A stretch of 64,000 nucleotides of DNA from an uncultured Thermoplasmata archaeon (lineage in GTDB: Archaea > Thermoplasmatota > Thermoplasmata > UBA10834): positions 1 through 64,000 of the forward strand of contig CAVRDX010000004.1 of NCBI GenBank assembly GCA_963719945.1. Direction: 5' to 3'. Under the pieces are notes generated by a model. The model was not told the origin of the DNA. It searched no databases and saw only the letters and a list, made by a program, of their open reading frames with translations. Positions 8,096 through 50,853 of this stretch are shown here, one piece after another. A program made the translations under genes and the position numbers. How positions within the stretch are numbered: the stretch's first letter is position 1; each line of letters opens with the position of its first letter.

Positions 8096-9610
8096 ATGGC
8101 AGGACCTATCATCAACGATACAACGGTGAAGACGAAGGAGAAGAAGATCACTATAGACCCGATCACGAGACTGGAGGGGCATGGCAAGATCGAGATATTC
8201 CTGGACGATGCTGGGAACGTCGCGAACGCATACCTCCAGGTCCCGGAACTCAGAGGATTCGAGAGGTTCTGTATCGGCCGTCACGTGCAGGAGCTGCCCG
8301 TGCTGACGAACAGGCTCTGCGGTGTATGTCCAGCTGCGCACCACATAGCGTCGACGAAGGCTTTGGACGCCGTGTTCAACGCCGAGCCGACTGCGACCGC
8401 CAAGAAGCTCAGGGAGCTGTTCTACATGGGACAGTACACCCACAGCCACATAGCGCACTTCTACGCCCTCGCGGCGCCTGACTTCGTCCTCGGACCATCG
8501 GCCCCGGCCAGCAAGAGGAACGTGCTGGGGGTCGTGGACGCAGTAGGTGTCCCGATCGGTGCCGAAGTGATAAAGCACAGGTCTTACGGTCAGAAGGTCC
8601 AGGAGATAATCGGTGGAAGGGCGACGCACCCGGTGTTCGGCCTCCCCGGCGGAGTCTCCAAGCAGATAAGCGAGGAGGAGCGCCTGCAGATGGTGGAGAT
8701 GGCAAAGTCGTGTGTCGAGTTCGGCAAGTTCACGATAAAGCTGTTCCACGATGTCGTGCTCGCCAACAAAGACTACCTCGGACTCATCCTGAACCAGGAC
8801 GCATACTACCTAGAGACCTACTACATGGGTATGGTCGACAAGAACAACAAGAGCAACTTCTACGATGGTGACATCCGCGTAGTCGACCAGACCGGCAAGC
8901 AGGTCGTGAAGTTCAAGCCCAGCGAGTACCTGGACATAATCGCCGAGCATGTCGAGCCATGGACCTACATGAAGATGCCCTACCTGAAGAGCGTCGGATG
9001 GAAGGGCTTCGAAGTCGGTCCATCGAGCGGCATCTACCGTGTCGGTCCTCTGGGCAGGATAAACGTGTGCGAAGGATACACCACACCTCTGGCTCAGGCC
9101 GAGTACGAAGCGCTCGCGAAGACCATGAAGGACCTTGGAGTCAAAGGTCCCGTGCACCACACGCTCGCGTATCACTGGGCAAGGGTGATCGAGCTGCAGT
9201 ACGCCGACGAGAGGATGCTCGAGCTCGCAAACGACAAGAGCATCACAAGCGATGACATCAGAGGAGCGTTCAACCCGCCGACCGAAGGGGTAGGCATCTG
9301 CGAGGCCCCGAGAGGCACGCTCATACATCACTATGCCTCGGACAAGGACGGCATCTGCACGAAGATCAACATGGTGGTCGCGACGACCAACAACTACGCT
9401 GCGATCAACACGAGCGTGAAGCAGGCGGCGAAGGCGTTGATCAAGAACGGCGAGGTCTCGCCAGGTCTGCTGAACAAGGTCGAGATGGCTTTCAGATGCT
9501 ACGACCCCTGCAACTCGTGCGGGACACACGCCCTGAACGGCGGCCCTGCGCTCGCAGTGAACATCCACAGAAAGGACGGCACTGTCGTCGAGACGCTCAA
9601 AAACTTCTGA
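8096..9610 (+). CDS. mvhA: [NiFe]-hydrogenase large subunit MvhA (group 3c-like)
   Basis: TRLEGHG, L1 RLCGVC, EAPRGTL, L2 YDPCNSCGTH plus a cleavable C-terminal tail; Cys rather than Sec. Confidence 0.95.
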   Translation: MAGPIINDTTVKTKEKKITIDPITRLEGHGKIEIFLDDAGNVANAYLQVPELRGFERFCIGRHVQELPVLTNRLCGVCPAAHHIASTKALDAVFNAEPTATAKKLRELFYMGQYTHSHIAHFYALAAPDFVLGPSAPASKRNVLGVVDAVGVPIGAEVIKHRSYGQKVQEIIGGRATHPVFGLPGGVSKQISEEERLQMVEMAKSCVEFGKFTIKLFHDVVLANKDYLGLILNQDAYYLETYYMGMVDKNNKSNFYDGDIRVVDQTGKQVVKFKPSEYLDIIAEHVEPWTYMKMPYLKSVGWKGFEVGPSSGIYRVGPLGRINVCEGYTTPLAQAEYEALAKTMKDLGVKGPVHHTLAYHWARVIELQYADERMLELANDKSITSDDIRGAFNPPTEGVGICEAPRGTLIHHYASDKDGICTKINMVVATTNNYAAINTSVKQAAKALIKNGEVSPGLLNKVEMAFRCYDPCNSCGTHALNGGPALAVNIHRKDGTVVETLKNF

Positions 9611-42237: not shown

Positions 42238-42483
42238 ATGTCGATGCGCAAATTCATAACCGAGCTCAAGGGCAAAACGGTAATGACAAACGATGGCCAG
42301 ATACTCGGCATGATTGAGAACTTCATGATAGACACGAAGACTGGTGAGCTTCAGAATGTTCTCGTGATCCCTGCGGAAGAGATCGAACCGAGATTGTTCA
42401 AGACCGATGCCCAGGGAAGACTCGTGCTTCCGTTCAGCGAGATGAAAGCTGTCCGCGATGTCGTCGTGATGAACATCGCGTAA
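42238..42483 (+). CDS. PRC-barrel protein (CdpB-like)
   Basis: LKGKTVMTNDGQILG...IDTKTG...KAVRDVVV. Confidence 0.82.
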   Translation: MSMRKFITELKGKTVMTNDGQILGMIENFMIDTKTGELQNVLVIPAEEIEPRLFKTDAQGRLVLPFSEMKAVRDVVVMNIA

Positions 42484-42544: not shown

Positions 42545-45130
42545 TCACTTCTTCAGAGCCTGCCTCTTCGCGCGCATGATACGTGATATAAGTTCGGATT
42601 TGGTTCCCCTGGAACTTATCCCGAACGCATCGCATATGGCCTCCAACTCGGTCTTCCGCTTCTTTCGGAGGTTCTTCTGTGTCAGCTCGGCCATGTCGAG
42701 AGAGGATACATCGATACCTCCGACGATTTCCAGCTGCGGAGGATGGACGGGATCCTCGGTCGCGACCGATCCGCTGACCGGCCTGGAGGGTGCCGACTCC
42801 GCTCTCTTAAGGTTCGAGGATGCGTCCCCGAACTTCGGAGCCAATCTCAGCGCTTCCTTCAGGGAGACCTGGGCTGCATCCATCTTGGACATGCGCATGA
42901 GCACGATGCCTTTGTTGTTGTATCCCTCAGGTGTCTCGGCCAATCTGATGGATTGCTCGAATGAGCTGAGCGCTTCCGAAAGCATGTCCAATGTCAACTG
43001 AGCGAAACCTTTGTTCGTCATCGCGACAGTGGATGGGGCTATGAGCAAGGATTCGTCGAAGCATGCGACAGCCTCCCTCATCCTGTCCCTCTTGTAGAGT
43101 ATGCAACCCCTGTTGTTCCAAGCAGCTGGATTGCTCTTCCTGTGCTTGATGGCCCGGTCGACCTCAAGGCTCGCCTTCTCGAACTCGCCTTTCTTCAATA
43201 TGACGACACCCAGATTGTTGCGAGCCTCCGATCTATCCAAAGGCAAAGCAGCGGCGCGTTCGAACGCCTCAGCAGCACCATCTAGATCGTCACATTCGAG
43301 TTTGGTAAGGCCGCGATAATTGAGCAGCATTGCGAGGTTCTCAGCTGCAAGGGCGTCATCTATTTCCTCTATCGCCTTTGCAGGGTCGCCACTGTGACGG
43401 GCTTCGATGGCAGCCAATGCGTAGCCTTGCCATCCCGTGGAAGAGCCCCGGAGCGCCTCGCTAAGCTTGTGGACCTTCTCCCATTCGCCCACCTCCATGA
43501 GCGCATTGTGCAAATTCATCAATGCAGGGACGTATGACCCGTCGACCGATACAGCGTGTTCGTACGATCTTATTGCGGCCTCGATCTTCCCCTGTCGGAA
43601 GAGGACGTTTCCAGCGGCGGTAAGCAGGCTTGGGTCCTCGCCCTCCAACCGGAGGGATTTACCCAGGAATTCGAACGCTTCCTCATACCTGCCGAGGAGC
43701 AGGAGGAGCTGGGCACGGTCGCCGTAGAGTTCCTCCGCAAGCTGCTCAACCTTGGGTTCCTGGACACGAACGACCACATCCTCGGCCATAACTGGTGTAG
43801 GTGTCTCCGGCACGACTTTGACAGGAATCTCTGAAGCTGTCGAGAAGATATCTTCAACGATCCTGGGCACTTCAACGAATTGCTCGGCAATCTTCTGCTT
43901 CACTTCCCCAAGTGCCTTCCTGGCATCGATATAGTCCGGGTCGAGCTGAAGGGACTGCTCGAATGCTGAATTGGCCTGTGTGACTTTGCCGAGCTTCTTG
44001 GAGACCATTCCCCGGAGATACCAACCCTTGGGGTACTCCGGCCTGAATCTCGTGACTTGCGTGAATGATTCGAGGGCTTCCTCGTATCGTCCTATCGTAT
44101 ACAGCAGGTTGCCTTTGTTGATCCACGCCTCGACATAATCATGTTTGAGCTCGAGCGCACGGTCGTATGATTCAAGAGCTTCGGTCTGCCTGTTGAGCGC
44201 GTGAAGGGTGGCTCCCTTATTGTTATGGACCTTCTCCAGGCGATAGTTGATCTTGAGCACCTTGTCGTATGTGACCAGTGCCTCCTGGTATCGTCCCAGT
44301 CTGTGCAGGGTGGATCCTTTGTTGATCAAGGCCTTCTGCATCATAGGGTTGTAGAACAGGGCCTTGTCGTAGCACATTATCTCTTCGGTGTATCTGGAAA
44401 GCGCGAAGAAACAGTTGCCGAGGGCGAACCAGGTCTCATCGCTCTCTGGCAGGAGTTCCAAAGCGTGCTTGTAACACTCGAGCGCCTGCTCGTGGTATCC
44501 CATCTCATCCAGAGTAACTCCCTTGAGTCGCCAGGGCACATCGTAGTTCTCATCAACCAGTATGGCGAGGTCGAACGCCTCAAGAGCGCGCATGAAATCC
44601 TTGCCCGCAAGTGCGTCGTATCCCGCCTTCATCGCATCCTCGAGCCTTTCTCCGGAGATGGCCGGGCGTTCGACCACGACCTCCTCGGGTATCGAGGATG
44701 TGATTTGCAGGACCTCCTTGTCCAGGTCGAATCTGCGGAGTATGGCAATGAGTTTCGTTCCGTCTGCGAAGCCGATGGAATGCTCACCCATGAGCTCGAC
44801 AGCCTCGCCAAGAATGGAAGCCGTCGTAAACACCAGGGCGGATGATGCCCCCGTCTTCTCCATGTAGGAAATCAAACTCTCAATATCGCCTCTTCCCAAC
44901 GGCTGCTCCCGTCTTGAGAAAAGGACAGCGTACCTGGTATCGTCGGATCGGTGGATGCAATCCGCGATCACGAAAGTCTCCCTGAGTCGGCTCCTGGACA
45001 TCTTTAGCTCCAGATATCCGAGGACCTTCTCCACCAAGTTGCTGAACTCCGGGTCAGGGAGGTTGAGGACCGCGCTGATGATCCTGTCATCTGAGCGTTC
45101 GTCAAGAATCTTATCCAGTTCGACCATCAC
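42545..45130 (-). CDS. TPR protein with N-terminal degenerate Mrr-like domain and C-terminal SAP-like motif
   Basis: Many 34-aa TPRs (W.NKG..L..LGRY.EAL..YD.AL); N-terminal Mrr-like pattern; C-terminal KTELEAICDAFGISSRGTKSELISRI. Confidence 0.8.
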   Translation of the reverse strand: MMVELDKILDERSDDRIISAVLNLPDPEFSNLVEKVLGYLELKMSRSRLRETFVIADCIHRSDDTRYAVLFSRREQPLGRGDIESLISYMEKTGASSALVFTTASILGEAVELMGEHSIGFADGTKLIAILRRFDLDKEVLQITSSIPEEVVVERPAISGERLEDAMKAGYDALAGKDFMRALEAFDLAILVDENYDVPWRLKGVTLDEMGYHEQALECYKHALELLPESDETWFALGNCFFALSRYTEEIMCYDKALFYNPMMQKALINKGSTLHRLGRYQEALVTYDKVLKINYRLEKVHNNKGATLHALNRQTEALESYDRALELKHDYVEAWINKGNLLYTIGRYEEALESFTQVTRFRPEYPKGWYLRGMVSKKLGKVTQANSAFEQSLQLDPDYIDARKALGEVKQKIAEQFVEVPRIVEDIFSTASEIPVKVVPETPTPVMAEDVVVRVQEPKVEQLAEELYGDRAQLLLLLGRYEEAFEFLGKSLRLEGEDPSLLTAAGNVLFRQGKIEAAIRSYEHAVSVDGSYVPALMNLHNALMEVGEWEKVHKLSEALRGSSTGWQGYALAAIEARHSGDPAKAIEEIDDALAAENLAMLLNYRGLTKLECDDLDGAAEAFERAAALPLDRSEARNNLGVVILKKGEFEKASLEVDRAIKHRKSNPAAWNNRGCILYKRDRMREAVACFDESLLIAPSTVAMTNKGFAQLTLDMLSEALSSFEQSIRLAETPEGYNNKGIVLMRMSKMDAAQVSLKEALRLAPKFGDASSNLKRAESAPSRPVSGSVATEDPVHPPQLEIVGGIDVSSLDMAELTQKNLRKKRKTELEAICDAFGISSRGTKSELISRIMRAKRQALKK

Positions 45131-47004
45131 TCATCCCCTCCGCCGAGAGTTTTCAGCCACTTCGCAGCTTCCCTGTTGGTCGAATCCAGCCTTACGGCCT
45201 CCTCGAGACACTTGCGTGCTTCATCCTGCATTCCGATGGCATTCAGTGCGATGCCCTTTCTGCCGAGAGCGTATGAGTCGTCTTGGTCAAGTTCCAGGAA
45301 CCTGTCGTATGCCTCCACCGACCTGCGATGCTTCTCCTTCTCGAACAGGATGTCTGCCTTCAACAGCCATGAATCCTTATCGCGCGGCTCCAGCATGTTA
45401 TACTTGTCCAGGCATTGTATCGCAGCGCCCCAACGACCCATCTCGCGCATCGCTTTAGCCTTTCCTAACCATGCACGTGGATAGTTGCCATTGATCTGCA
45501 AGGCTCTTGAATAGCTCTCATCGGCACCGCTGACCTTGTTGTTCTTGAGCAGCGCGTCGCCCATCAACACCCATGCATCGATCTGCCTTGGATCGAGTGA
45601 TACGGACTTGCTGAAGTACTGAACAGCTGCCCCCCATTTGCCTTCCTTCTCAGCCAGGACGCCTCGCCAATACCACGCGCGGGGATCGTTTCTGTTGTTT
45701 TCGTAGAAAGCGTGTGCGACATGGTCTGCTCGGGCCAGGTCGTTTGTCTTTACAAGGGATTCGATCAGTGTCAATTGTGCATCCACGGAGCCGGGTTCTT
45801 CCTGAAGAATGTGCTCCGCCATCTGTATCGCCGAATCGTAGTTCCCCGATCTGAGCGCTTCCCGAGCAAGTTCGGCAGGATAGGATTCGACTTGGATCCT
45901 CTCTCCTTTCGGTTCCTCAGCGATGTGTATGAAATGCCTCGGAGGCGCTCCAACCGATGTCTCGGCGGATGCCTTCTTCAATTCGTTGATCAGGTCTGTC
46001 ACTTTCTGGTCCAGGTCAGGCGTTCTCGCCATCACCCTCTGACGCTCGGCCACTGAGGCATCCTCAGTCCTGCCCAGCTCGTGCAGAACAACAATGATGT
46101 GATCGTAAGCTTCTATGAATTTTGAGTCCAGAGAAAGCGACCTGTTGAAGCAATCGAGCGCCTCCTGGAGCTTGTTCATGTCCCTGAGAACCCTGCCTTT
46201 GAGGACCCACAATCTCGGTGTCTCCTCAAGCGCCAGGGCGTCATCTATCCGTGCCATGGCATCCATAGGGTTCCCGAGTTCGAGATGAGACTTGGCCAAG
46301 GATTCGACAATCTTCCTGTCGTTGGGGAAATGCTTGAGGGCGTTGGATAGATGCATCTCCGCGTCTGCCCAATCGCCAGCATCGACCGCGAGCATGCCCA
46401 TGTTATAGATCGCTATTGAGCTGAGGTCGTCGGTCTGGGTGACCCGAGCCATGTAATCCCTTGCTCTCGACCTGAGCAGCTTCTTCTTCGAGTCGGCCCA
46501 TTCTTTGGATGCCGTCCTCATCAATATTCCGTGAAATGCGTACCAGTAGACGAGACCCATGCGCAAGTACAAGTCGCTCATGCCCTCGTTGGGATAGAGT
46601 TGCTCCGCCTGCTCCACCTTCCGAATTATAGTAGCGATCGTCTGCGCAGCATCTTCTGTGATCAATATGAAAGGGTGGTCGAACTTGAGAGGGACGCCGA
46701 GGTGCGCCAGTATCGTATTGCATTGTTCGTAGAACCCTTTGAGCTCCTCCCGAGTCATGCCTTCGACACCGGTCTCAGAGACCATCTTCTGCAAATCGAT
46801 TGACGGGATGCATATCGCGTCTGAACAAGAGGTAGGGCCGAGAAGCATCGTGGCGGACCCTTCCGAGCGCATCCTCTGAAAAACGCTCCGGCCAATTAAT
46901 GACGGGTTCAGAAAGAACCGAGGGTCTTCGAAAGAAGCGTCGGCGCATGCATCACAGAGGAGCGGCCCCTCCTCGCACATGCAACCACATCTGAGACAAG
47001 CCAC
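45127..47004 (-). CDS. TPR protein with N-terminal CxxC...CxxC Zn ribbon
   Basis: CLRC-x-LCDAC; TPR arrays; 4-bp overlap with the downstream TPR gene. Confidence 0.8.
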   Translation of the reverse strand: MACLRCGCMCEEGPLLCDACADASFEDPRFFLNPSLIGRSVFQRMRSEGSATMLLGPTSCSDAICIPSIDLQKMVSETGVEGMTREELKGFYEQCNTILAHLGVPLKFDHPFILITEDAAQTIATIIRKVEQAEQLYPNEGMSDLYLRMGLVYWYAFHGILMRTASKEWADSKKKLLRSRARDYMARVTQTDDLSSIAIYNMGMLAVDAGDWADAEMHLSNALKHFPNDRKIVESLAKSHLELGNPMDAMARIDDALALEETPRLWVLKGRVLRDMNKLQEALDCFNRSLSLDSKFIEAYDHIIVVLHELGRTEDASVAERQRVMARTPDLDQKVTDLINELKKASAETSVGAPPRHFIHIAEEPKGERIQVESYPAELAREALRSGNYDSAIQMAEHILQEEPGSVDAQLTLIESLVKTNDLARADHVAHAFYENNRNDPRAWYWRGVLAEKEGKWGAAVQYFSKSVSLDPRQIDAWVLMGDALLKNNKVSGADESYSRALQINGNYPRAWLGKAKAMREMGRWGAAIQCLDKYNMLEPRDKDSWLLKADILFEKEKHRRSVEAYDRFLELDQDDSYALGRKGIALNAIGMQDEARKCLEEAVRLDSTNREAAKWLKTLGGGDE

Positions 47005-47072
47005 GCATTACCTCCTCATTATGCGATATGGGTCTAGTAATATAATCATAACGTTCTCGCTTTCATCTGCGT

Positions 47073-49788: not shown

Positions 49789-50853
49789 TCAGTGACCGCT
49801 ATCCTCTAATCTACCCCAAGTCAGCAAGCGCTCTGAAAGATTGGCAGGAGCTGAGCGATGATGTATGCTGGCTGGCCAAATCATGGATGATGTCACGACG
49901 ATTGCTCCAATCAACCCCAGGATAGATCCAGGGCCGATATTTGCGTGGCAGATCAGATATCCGACCCAGTGGAAATCTGCTAACAGCAGGCTGTCATCTA
50001 CTACCACTCGGTCCCCAGATATTCCATTAAGAATCCAAAGATATGCAGATGCCCCCATCAGTTGGAGGAGACCACCTATCGGCGATATTGCGGATACCAT
50101 GACGCCGGCAAGGAAGAGCAACATGCAAGCCGCAATTATCGCGTAACTGACACCTGAGAGATTTGTGATAGAGTATGCGTCTTGATCTGGCGAGCCGGTA
50201 AGATAATGCGAAGGGTAATCGAGGAAGATGGTCGTCGGCGAGATGGGATGGTCAACAACGACACTGCCCCAGGGAAGCATCAGTGACAAGAGAGAAATCA
50301 TCAGTCCGATTGTGCACAATAGATTTATCTTGGACCGCCAAAAATCCCGCGGACGGATAGTGAGTAGTCGGGCGGAGATATCAGAACGATGAACCTTGGA
50401 TGAGTAGCCAAGTGGTAGAAGCAATCCGATAATCGTGATAACTGCAGCCGAGAATGCCATCCATAGACCAGGCCCCGGCATCATTGTAGGCCATGTCAGT
50501 TCTGCAATGTCACGTCCTGGACCCGTTCTGGGAAAAAGAGATGTGTATTCGTATTCTGAAATGTGGATGAGAGCAATTGATGCCCCCATCAACAGAATGG
50601 GACCTGCCAAGGGTGTAATAAATGCCATTAAGACCGCGATTAAGAAGATCAGCATCGGCGCATCGACTGATATGGTTTTGTAATGATTGAATCCAAGAAA
50701 CGCATCCAGAGGAGTTTCTGTAGGCACCAATAGCTCGCCGAAGTCCGTAGATGTCGGGGCGTGCCAAGGGAGAAATAAAGCAATTATGCCAAGAATCAGC
50801 CCCACTAGACAGATGATGTTGGCATCCCATTTCCTCAATCTATCGAACACCAA
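49789..50853 (-). CDS. Membrane protein with internal two-fold repeat
   Basis: NIICLVGLILGIIALFLPW versus NLLCTIGLMISLLSLMLPW; ISARLLT versus LSERLLT. Confidence 0.72.
   Translation of the reverse strand: MVFDRLRKWDANIICLVGLILGIIALFLPWHAPTSTDFGELLVPTETPLDAFLGFNHYKTISVDAPMLIFLIAVLMAFITPLAGPILLMGASIALIHISEYEYTSLFPRTGPGRDIAELTWPTMMPGPGLWMAFSAAVITIIGLLLPLGYSSKVHRSDISARLLTIRPRDFWRSKINLLCTIGLMISLLSLMLPWGSVVVDHPISPTTIFLDYPSHYLTGSPDQDAYSITNLSGVSYAIIAACMLLFLAGVMVSAISPIGGLLQLMGASAYLWILNGISGDRVVVDDSLLLADFHWVGYLICHANIGPGSILGLIGAIVVTSSMIWPASIHHRSAPANLSERLLTWGRLEDSGH

Follow-up and report, generated by a model that had tools for sequence, protein, structure and literature searches.

Several described systems share modules with the two adjoining genes considered here, which encode a zinc-ribbon protein and a larger protein with an Mrr-like head, both built on long arrays of tetratricopeptide repeats (TPRs). 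The genes lie in a 64,000-nt stretch of DNA (the window) from contig CAVRDX010000004.1 of assembly GCA_963719945.1, an uncultured Thermoplasmata archaeon of the UBA10834 lineage. The Mrr_cat enzymes, among them E. coli Mrr, MspJI, AspBHI and AF1548, are encoded by mobile defence genes and carry their PD-(D/E)XK domain behind a DNA-modification reader; an active Mrr-type nuclease has a helix Glu, an Asp on beta-2 and (Q/E)xK on beta-3, and PD-(D/E)XK enzymes can relocate catalytic residues. Inactive relatives of this fold stand before repeat arrays in the proteins of family PF22722 (NACHT-associated inactive restriction endonuclease 1). In ERCC1, an inactive nuclease-like domain together with HhH2 recognises branched or damaged DNA for the active nuclease XPF. 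An asparagine ladder in the TPR domain of O-GlcNAc transferase (OGT) is a subject of PMC11145291 and PMC10618255. Asparagines at TPR position 6 form such ladders and bind the peptide backbones of client proteins in OGT. Finally, FAN1 unites a zinc finger, a SAP domain, TPRs and a VRR_nuc nuclease that acts on flap DNA, and both its SAP and its TPR domain contact the DNA (PMC4201288).

In the pair of the window, known modules are put together in a new variant. The larger protein (hereafter Mrr-TPR) begins with an Mrr-type PD-(D/E)XK head that has lost its catalytic motif, continues through two TPR blocks and ends in a SAP domain, while its partner (Zn-TPR), encoded directly upstream, begins with a zinc ribbon. 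The two genes form a core module across an archaeal class, known in databases only by generic names ("tetratricopeptide repeat protein" or "PilF"), and a literature search returned no paper describing an Mrr/TPR/SAP or Mrr/TPR/helix-hairpin-helix protein of Thermoplasmata, or either of the two families. Our preferred reading, to which we give somewhat less than an even chance, is that the pair is a bicistronic housekeeping unit that encodes a DNA-tethered TPR scaffold specific to the class Thermoplasmata.

The Mrr-type head and the SAP tail

An earlier note on this DNA, made from the sequence alone, had proposed an Mrr-family PD-(D/E)XK domain at the N-terminus of the larger protein, and this assignment is well borne out. 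The Pfam model Mrr_cat (PF04471) matches residues 26-130 with 27.6 bits against a cut-off of 21, and in a six-frame search of the whole genome Mrr-TPR is its sole match (28.2 bits); the model is likewise matched by all 18 aligned relatives. An AlphaFold2 (AF2) model of the head, computed with 18 relatives, has a predicted local distance difference test score (pLDDT) of 93.1 and an alpha-alpha-beta-beta-beta-alpha-beta topology with an alpha-beta-beta-beta-alpha-beta core, in which the helices span residues 26-39 and 80-93 and the strands residues 42-50, 53-60, 66-72 and 97-102. VIA fold matches of this model are AspBHI (Z 12.3, root-mean-square deviation 4.2, 137 aligned residues), AF1548 (Z 10.3) and MspJI (Z 10.1), with the repair nucleases EndoMS/NucS also found at Z 7.9-8.5. 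A sequence profile of the head gave nothing significant against PDB sequences.

Fold and sequence family are thereby shared with the Mrr_cat enzymes, as are the helix Phe, the beta-2 Asp and a C-terminal 'ADG..L' strand-helix, whereas the catalytic FE has become FS and QxK has become LFS, replacements that the earlier note had already read from the letters. Alignment by hhalign with E. coli Mrr places the catalytic Q219-A-K221 on L70-F71-S72; by eye, the FE of Mrr aligns to F29-S30 and its Asp to D57, which is retained and is all that remains here of the catalytic residues of an active Mrr-type nuclease. The same picture emerges when 20 class-wide homologs are aligned under the guidance of a hidden Markov model. 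Of these, 19 have the helix Phe, which is followed by a variable position; 15 have D or E at the Asp position, and 16 keep the Arg (R73) that follows the QxK positions, which are themselves hydrophobic or variable. The QxK motif occurs in none of the 20, and neither the helix Glu nor (Q/E)xK is conserved in any register. Because the catalytic motif is lacking across these class-wide homologs, the loss of the active site is, as judged from the alignment, ancient and common to the whole family. Six of 18 orthologous heads match PF22722 (best E 5.8e-7), although the protein of the window is not itself among the matches at E 0.01.

Two further differences set the head apart from the Mrr_cat enzymes: it stands N-terminal to a TPR array, and it is part of a core syntenic gene. 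The two-domain combination of Mrr and TPRs is not unique, since large clusters of Spirochaetota proteins in the ESM Atlas (up to 832 members) also have an N-terminal Mrr-like domain followed by TPRs (TM 0.74-0.76 over ~125 residues); those proteins are bacterial, however, and only 360-452 aa long.

At the other end of the protein, the SAP domain that had been suggested from the sequence pattern is supported from several sides. Taken alone, the tail scores 27.8 bits with SAP (PF02037), whose cut-off is 23.9; the score falls to 23.7 bits when the full-length protein is used and stands at 28.4 bits in the six-frame search of the genome. When a profile built from 18 tails is compared with all PDB sequences, it matches human DEK (E 9e-8) and Hcc-1 (E 2e-5) at their SAP domains. 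As in DEK, Hcc-1/SARNP and Tho1, a basic patch precedes the domain; unlike those eukaryotic chromatin proteins, the present one is archaeal, its SAP domain makes up the last 35 residues of a TPR protein of 860 aa, and relatives carry a helix-hairpin-helix (HhH) in its place. The last 46 residues, with a net charge of +10, are the only basic segment of the larger protein. All its other segments are acidic, including the head at -9, and the spacer at residues 781-815 is poorly conserved (0.34-0.49). Only one other match to the SAP model occurs in the genome, in an 88-aa open frame (C2:57767-57844, L055), at 24.0 bits just above the cut-off.

The SAP tail is that of this order, and in most of the distant lineages its place at the C-terminus is taken by an HhH pair (HHH_5, 39-45 bits, with endings like '...VKGIG..LAK.IKK'). 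A few lineages end without a tail module or with a zinc ribbon instead. The best argument for a tail that holds the protein on DNA is that two unrelated modules, both non-specific duplex binders, occupy the same position, and from this we infer that either module, SAP or HhH, may act as a DNA tether. The basic charge of the tail agrees with such a role. In two families the larger gene is split and the unit takes a three-gene form (L048:6614-11477 and L049:6138-11109), consisting of Zn-TPR, an Mrr head plus TPRs with a Cys-rich tail, and a further TPR protein; this third protein has a start that looks SAP-like by eye, with no Pfam SAP match, and in L048 an HHH_5 end.

Between head and tail, TPR_1 matches the larger protein in 10 stretches (Pfam, E 1.5e-70). 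The first block stands out, in that the frequency of the top residue over residues 181-340 is 0.83-0.94 among 37 orthologs and so exceeds that of the head. Three successive repeats of this block carry an Asn at TPR position 6 (N270, N304 and N338), of which N338 is invariant and the other two almost invariant, with the sister family (~30% identity) included. Read from sequence, this resembles the asparagine ladder of OGT; in contrast to OGT, there is no catalytic domain here, and each block has only three to four ladder positions.

The partner also has modules at its N-terminus. The earlier note had described a CxxC pair there, and two such motifs are indeed present, with a spacing of x10 (C3, C6, C17 and C20) and not x9. 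Among 23-24 aligned orthologs C6, C17 and C20 are invariant and C3 is nearly so, and distant partners across the class likewise start with CxxC...CxxC. The ribbon is followed by a segment that may be a binding motif: seven of its positions are invariant, even though AF2 gives pLDDT <50 for residues 34-58 and 60-67. The helical head behind it is modelled at pLDDT ~80-94 and runs on continuously into the TPR solenoid. Residues 1-200 match no Pfam family, a Foldseek search of the partner head against PDB gave no match at E<=0.001, its best VIA matches are TPR-like repeat proteins (Z 7.6), and a language-model atlas returned only TPR/zinc-ribbon clusters, at 0.90-0.91. From about residue 198 onwards TPR_2, TPR_19 and TPR_1 all match at E 1e-35 to 1e-36 (TPR_2 in 7 stretches, E 4.5e-36), and many partner orthologs have a precomputed match to TPR-S (PF20308). 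An Asn ladder of the kind seen in TPR block 1 of the larger protein is absent from the partner.

Gene order and spread across the class

Both minus-strand open reading frames (ORFs) are real, and the earlier suggestion of translational coupling stands in a modified form. The junction reads GAG TGA TGG, so that the overlap is 4 bp, as first stated, if Mrr-TPR is counted from the GTG at 45130, and 1 nt if it is counted from the ATG at 45127. The ATG is most likely the real start, because all orthologs begin with MVE(L/I)DK and because a database entry that is identical throughout the stretch searched, the N-terminal 160 residues, is itself 860 aa long. All family-level loci examined have an identical TGATG junction, and the GGAGG upstream of it is conserved too. 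One apparent in-frame fusion of the two genes (L016, G016:C21, ~8100-9100) was considered and rejected. It arises from a frameshift ~15 codons before the stop, with a second frameshift splitting the Mrr-TPR gene of the same genome. TGATG is still intact there, and assembly indels are the most likely cause, not a Rosetta-stone fusion.

Upstream of Zn-TPR, a TATA-like box, ATGATTATAT, recurs at an equal distance in each of the 10 other family-level loci (L013-L021 and L028), with ACCATTATAT in one of them, and the sister family carries TTTTTAAT at that position. A second conserved word, similar to 'ATATCG', lies ~12 nt downstream of the box; together the two look like an archaeal TATA box plus initiator region. 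The spacer that separates Zn-TPR from the preceding elp3 gene is 68 bp here and 70-80 bp in the family loci, and it is variable except for the ATGATTATAT box. Considering that the box is fixed in place while the spacer around it varies, the pair probably has its own promoter.

How widely is the pair conserved? Within the GTDB family of this archaeon 24/24 genomes have both genes, as do 3/3 of the sister family, with the partner always directly upstream of Mrr-TPR on the same strand unless a contig end intervenes. In these two families the pair sits in a syntenic block of ABC-transporter genes, elp3, the pair, the PRC-barrel gene, cdc48 and oxidoreductase genes. A profile search of 151 sampled Thermoplasmata genomes from 29 families found the Mrr head in 71 genomes and at least 18 families, at the start of frames of 750-1270 aa, and the partner head in 41 genomes. 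Outside the two closest families, 17 genomes hold both genes, and in 14 of these the Zn gene is directly upstream on the same strand. The one sampled genome of family f26 has no partner head, and none lies beside the Mrr-TPR gene in locus L041. Around the distant pairs the other neighbours differ; when the neighbours at 21 distant loci were clustered all against all, no third gene accompanied the pair, lineage-specific exceptions aside. Outside the class, the phylum gave only weak head matches, in frames of 290-360 aa. The spread across the class is visible only with a profile, for a single-sequence phmmer search of the head against 1.8 billion representatives gave just 13 clusters. A search for related loci that started from a single protein returned no more than two metagenome-assembled genomes, both nearly identical. 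Carriers include a cultured organism, Aciduliprofundum sp. MAR08-339 (AGB04399.1, annotated 'PilF'), and a Methanomassiliicoccales metagenome-assembled genome (MAG).

The earlier note had named three grounds on which its proposal should be dropped, namely no restriction-endonuclease fold, no SAP match, or two genes that are not conserved together. On checking, the fold and the SAP match are both there, and the genes do keep company in relatives.

A proposed tethered scaffold and its rivals

Directly observed are the domains, the lost catalytic motif, the conserved gene order and the exchange of tail modules; from these we infer DNA binding, client binding, a complex and a cellular process along the following lines. 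The basic SAP domain at the C-terminus of the larger protein, held on a flexible acidic spacer, would bind duplex DNA of any sequence, and in most other lineages of the class an HhH pair would take over this job. The two TPR solenoids, and above all block 1 with its Asn ladder, would hold extended peptides of client proteins. The Mrr-type fold would no longer cut DNA and would be a head for binding, its target being protein just as probably as nucleic acid. The Zn-TPR protein would be made in step with the larger one by way of the TGATG overlap and would work together with it, probably as a hetero-oligomer. If this is correct, the pair represents a new kind of nucleoid-associated machinery for archaea, in which a restriction-enzyme fold has been recruited to a non-catalytic housekeeping role and SAP and HhH have been swapped at one position.

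Several observations pull against the preferred reading. There is no C-terminal DNA-binding module in Aciduliprofundum sp. MAR08-339, G032 or P0052, and since some lineages lack the module, DNA tethering is not universal in the protein family. The acidic head may not touch DNA at all. The idea of a nuclease-dead DNA reader, put forward in the earlier note, thus survives only in its first half: the catalytic motif is lost, but because the head is acidic and only the tail is basic, the head as the reader of DNA is doubtful, and the dead nuclease fold could just as well bind protein. Family f16 has three genomes with both genes, and in each of them the two are on different contigs. Finally, the proteins of the pair are only ~32% identical in the sister family as against 77% for Cdc48, a rate of divergence above that of the neighbouring genes which fits a sensor better than a core scaffold.

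A more specific version can be sketched, in which the two proteins form the core of a chromosome-associated scaffold. A TPR hetero-oligomer of ~1,500 residues would sit on SAP/HhH tails and recruit clients to the nucleoid through the Asn-ladder groove, with the dead Mrr domain and the zinc ribbon as regulatory or targeting heads, and would serve chromosome organisation, segregation or the coupling to division, in a lineage-specific manner with a eukaryote-like SAP domain. We regard this version as unlikely, if worth stating.

Do the two proteins work together at all? Prediction of a complex between residues 1-465 of the larger protein and 1-375 of the partner, run with alignments, gave a score of 0.00, a result that leaves the question of binding where it was. 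In a comparison of residual rate covariation that took in 12 syntenic genes and 9 related genomes, too few to be informative, the pair came 19th of 66 gene pairs and so had no special signal. This lack of a signal would suit TPR proteins that are co-transcribed but do not bind one another, acting as independent adaptors that merely share a promoter, the larger one perhaps not on DNA; the unlinked genes of f16 and the missing partners of f26 and L041 would suit them as well. Order, strand and the one-base overlap, however, have been kept over class-level divergence while the other neighbours change, and because this is hard to explain otherwise, a shared function of the pair is indicated. We consider independent adaptors quite unlikely.

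If a dead PD-(D/E)XK domain, an HhH or SAP tail and TPRs were to recognise branched or damaged DNA and recruit an active nuclease, much as ERCC1 serves XPF, the larger protein would be a DNA-repair or structure-recognition factor, which we judge rather unlikely. The four kinds of module that make up FAN1 (zinc-binding, SAP, TPR and a PD-(D/E)XK fold) do occur in the pair, a dead nuclease fold and a C-terminal HhH pair are found together in most relatives, and EndoMS/NucS are among the fold matches of the head. Nevertheless, the nuclease fold is inactive and of the Mrr type (Mrr_cat, with no VRR_nuc match, and with VRR_nuc and ERCC4 both missing from the top fold matches). The domain order is opposite to that of FAN1 in that the chain opens with the nuclease fold and closes with SAP; the modules are split over two proteins, and the TPR arrays are long, with ~20 canonical repeats where FAN1 has a compact 7-helix domain. 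In addition, no repair gene is a conserved neighbour, and the head is acidic. No homology to FAN1 was found beyond the types of module, and the resemblance is an analogy, not membership. A sensor in biological conflict or defence, whose inactive restriction-endonuclease head and sensor TPRs would detect foreign nucleic acid or protein as has been proposed for the NACHT-associated inactive restriction endonucleases, is improbable, and we keep it in play at that level because the pair diverges fast and some of the heads match the model of that inactive family. The solved folds nearest to the head, those of modification-dependent type IV enzymes, and the TPR-S matches of many partner orthologs point the same way. 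With the PF22722 proteins the larger protein also shares the placing of an inactive Mrr-like head before repeat arrays. Against a sensor, neither protein of the pair nor any conserved neighbour has an NTPase (such as the NACHT/STAND type) or an effector domain, and every family genome holds the pair in a housekeeping context at the same syntenic position, in single copy and with a G+C content like that of its flanks. A search of PADLOC-DB 2.0 gave no significant defence match (best 13-22 bits, driven by the TPRs, or mREase_IV at 17.5 bits, E 4.9e-4), and the partner head had no match at all. Were the pair a defence sensor after all, it would be an unusually ancient and immobile example.

Two other readings can be weighed more briefly. 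By analogy with the scaffold subunits of Elongator, the pair might be an archaeal accessory scaffold for Elp3, its SAP/HhH tail binding tRNA and not DNA. The elp3 gene does adjoin the pair on the same strand in the family, the sister family and G120, but the conserved TATA-like box of the pair itself lies inside the short spacer, and elp3 is not beside the pair in most of the distant lineages examined. The link to Elp3 is weak and this reading very improbable. It is harder still to credit an active, unusual type IV restriction endonuclease with its catalytic residues relocated within the fold. The acidic character of the D57 position and the retention of R73 in most class-wide homologs would be compatible with such an enzyme, but whatever the register, neither a helix Glu nor (Q/E)xK is conserved, six orthologs match a family that is defined as inactive, and a modification-reading domain is absent.

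Setting in the window

The locus is a core syntenic housekeeping region and not a defence island, in agreement with the earlier note, which had placed the pair among housekeeping genes and convergent with cdc48. The elp3 gene (TIGR01211, 721 bits) lies directly upstream; downstream and convergent are an 81-aa PRC-barrel gene, which stands between the pair and cdc48, then cdc48 itself (TIGR01243, 1022 bits), and then genes for pyruvate:ferredoxin oxidoreductase subunits. Coordinates are collected in Table 1.

Table 1. Features of the gene pair and its surroundings, in window coordinates
Feature	Position	Strand	Description and basis
PRC-barrel gene	42238-42483	+	81 aa; PF05239, E 2e-11; 12 bp after cdc48
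Mrr-TPR gene (Mrr-like/TPR/SAP)	42545..45130	-	861 aa from GTG at 45130; 860 aa from ATG at 45127
Acidic spacer, then basic patch + SAP	42548..42790	-	Residues 781-815, then 816-861; Pfam SAP match at 821-853
Linker + TPR block 2	42791..43900	-	Residues 411-465 and 466-780; Pfam TPR matches, conservation profile
TPR block 1	43901..44653	-	Residues 160-410; most conserved part of the larger protein
Nuclease-dead Mrr-type PD-(D/E)XK head	44681..45130	-	Residues 1-150; Mrr_cat match, AF2 model, fold matches
TGATG stop/start junction	45125..45129	-	Zn-TPR stop and Mrr-TPR ATG share one base
Zn-TPR gene (Zn-ribbon/TPR partner)	45127..47004	-	625 aa; GTG start; ORF and translation
Two TPR blocks of partner	45130..46389	-	Residues 206-325 and 376-625; poorly conserved linker 326-375
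GGAGG before Mrr-TPR start	45137..45141	-	9 nt upstream of ATG at 45127
Helical head of partner	46390..46803	-	Residues 68-205; continuous with TPR solenoid
Conserved segment of partner	46804..46929	-	Residues 26-67; invariant F30, P34, G38, S40, R46, G56, P57
Zn ribbon	46930..47004	-	Residues 1-25; C3-x2-C6-x10-C17-x2-C20
GAGGAGG	47011..47017	-	Just before Zn-TPR start, after ATGATTATAT box
TATA-like box ATGATTATAT	47040..47049	-	~40 nt upstream of Zn-TPR start; putative promoter element

Identity of the PRC-barrel protein is 92-100% among family members and 75-82% for the sister family, values far above those of the surrounding genes. In archaea, cdc48 next to a PRC-barrel gene is a reported conserved arrangement, and cell division in archaea involves some of the PRC-barrel proteins (bioRxiv 10.1101/2023.03.28.534520). 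At other loci, a divergent gene of the tubulin/FtsZ family (34-40 bits) lies directly upstream of the pair in two families (L033:12361-13353 and L039:11378-12313), and genes for small GTPases of the Ras/Roc family flank the pair in one genus with genomes of 3-5 Mb, one of them the named Methanomassiliicoccales MAG (L034:4445-5296, L035:13377-15118 and L042:11544-12398). Perhaps the tubulin/FtsZ gene, the GTPases and the convergent unit of cdc48 and the PRC-barrel gene all hint at the process in which the pair takes part, but the hints are weak and lineage-specific. The 1.8-Mb genome from which the window comes has, with a divergent query, eight frames of the tubulin/FtsZ family, some of them paired and none near the pair (for example C4:225593-226396, C4:226830-227621 and C1:23848-25842; L051-L053).

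Elsewhere in the window, a 354-aa ORF with a TTG start (49789-50853, minus strand) has no Pfam or NCBIfam match and no syntenic counterpart in the relatives examined. Its flanking genes are ~165 bp apart in the closest relative, L013 (~92% identity), as against 1154 bp here, and the ORF may be a lineage-specific insertion.

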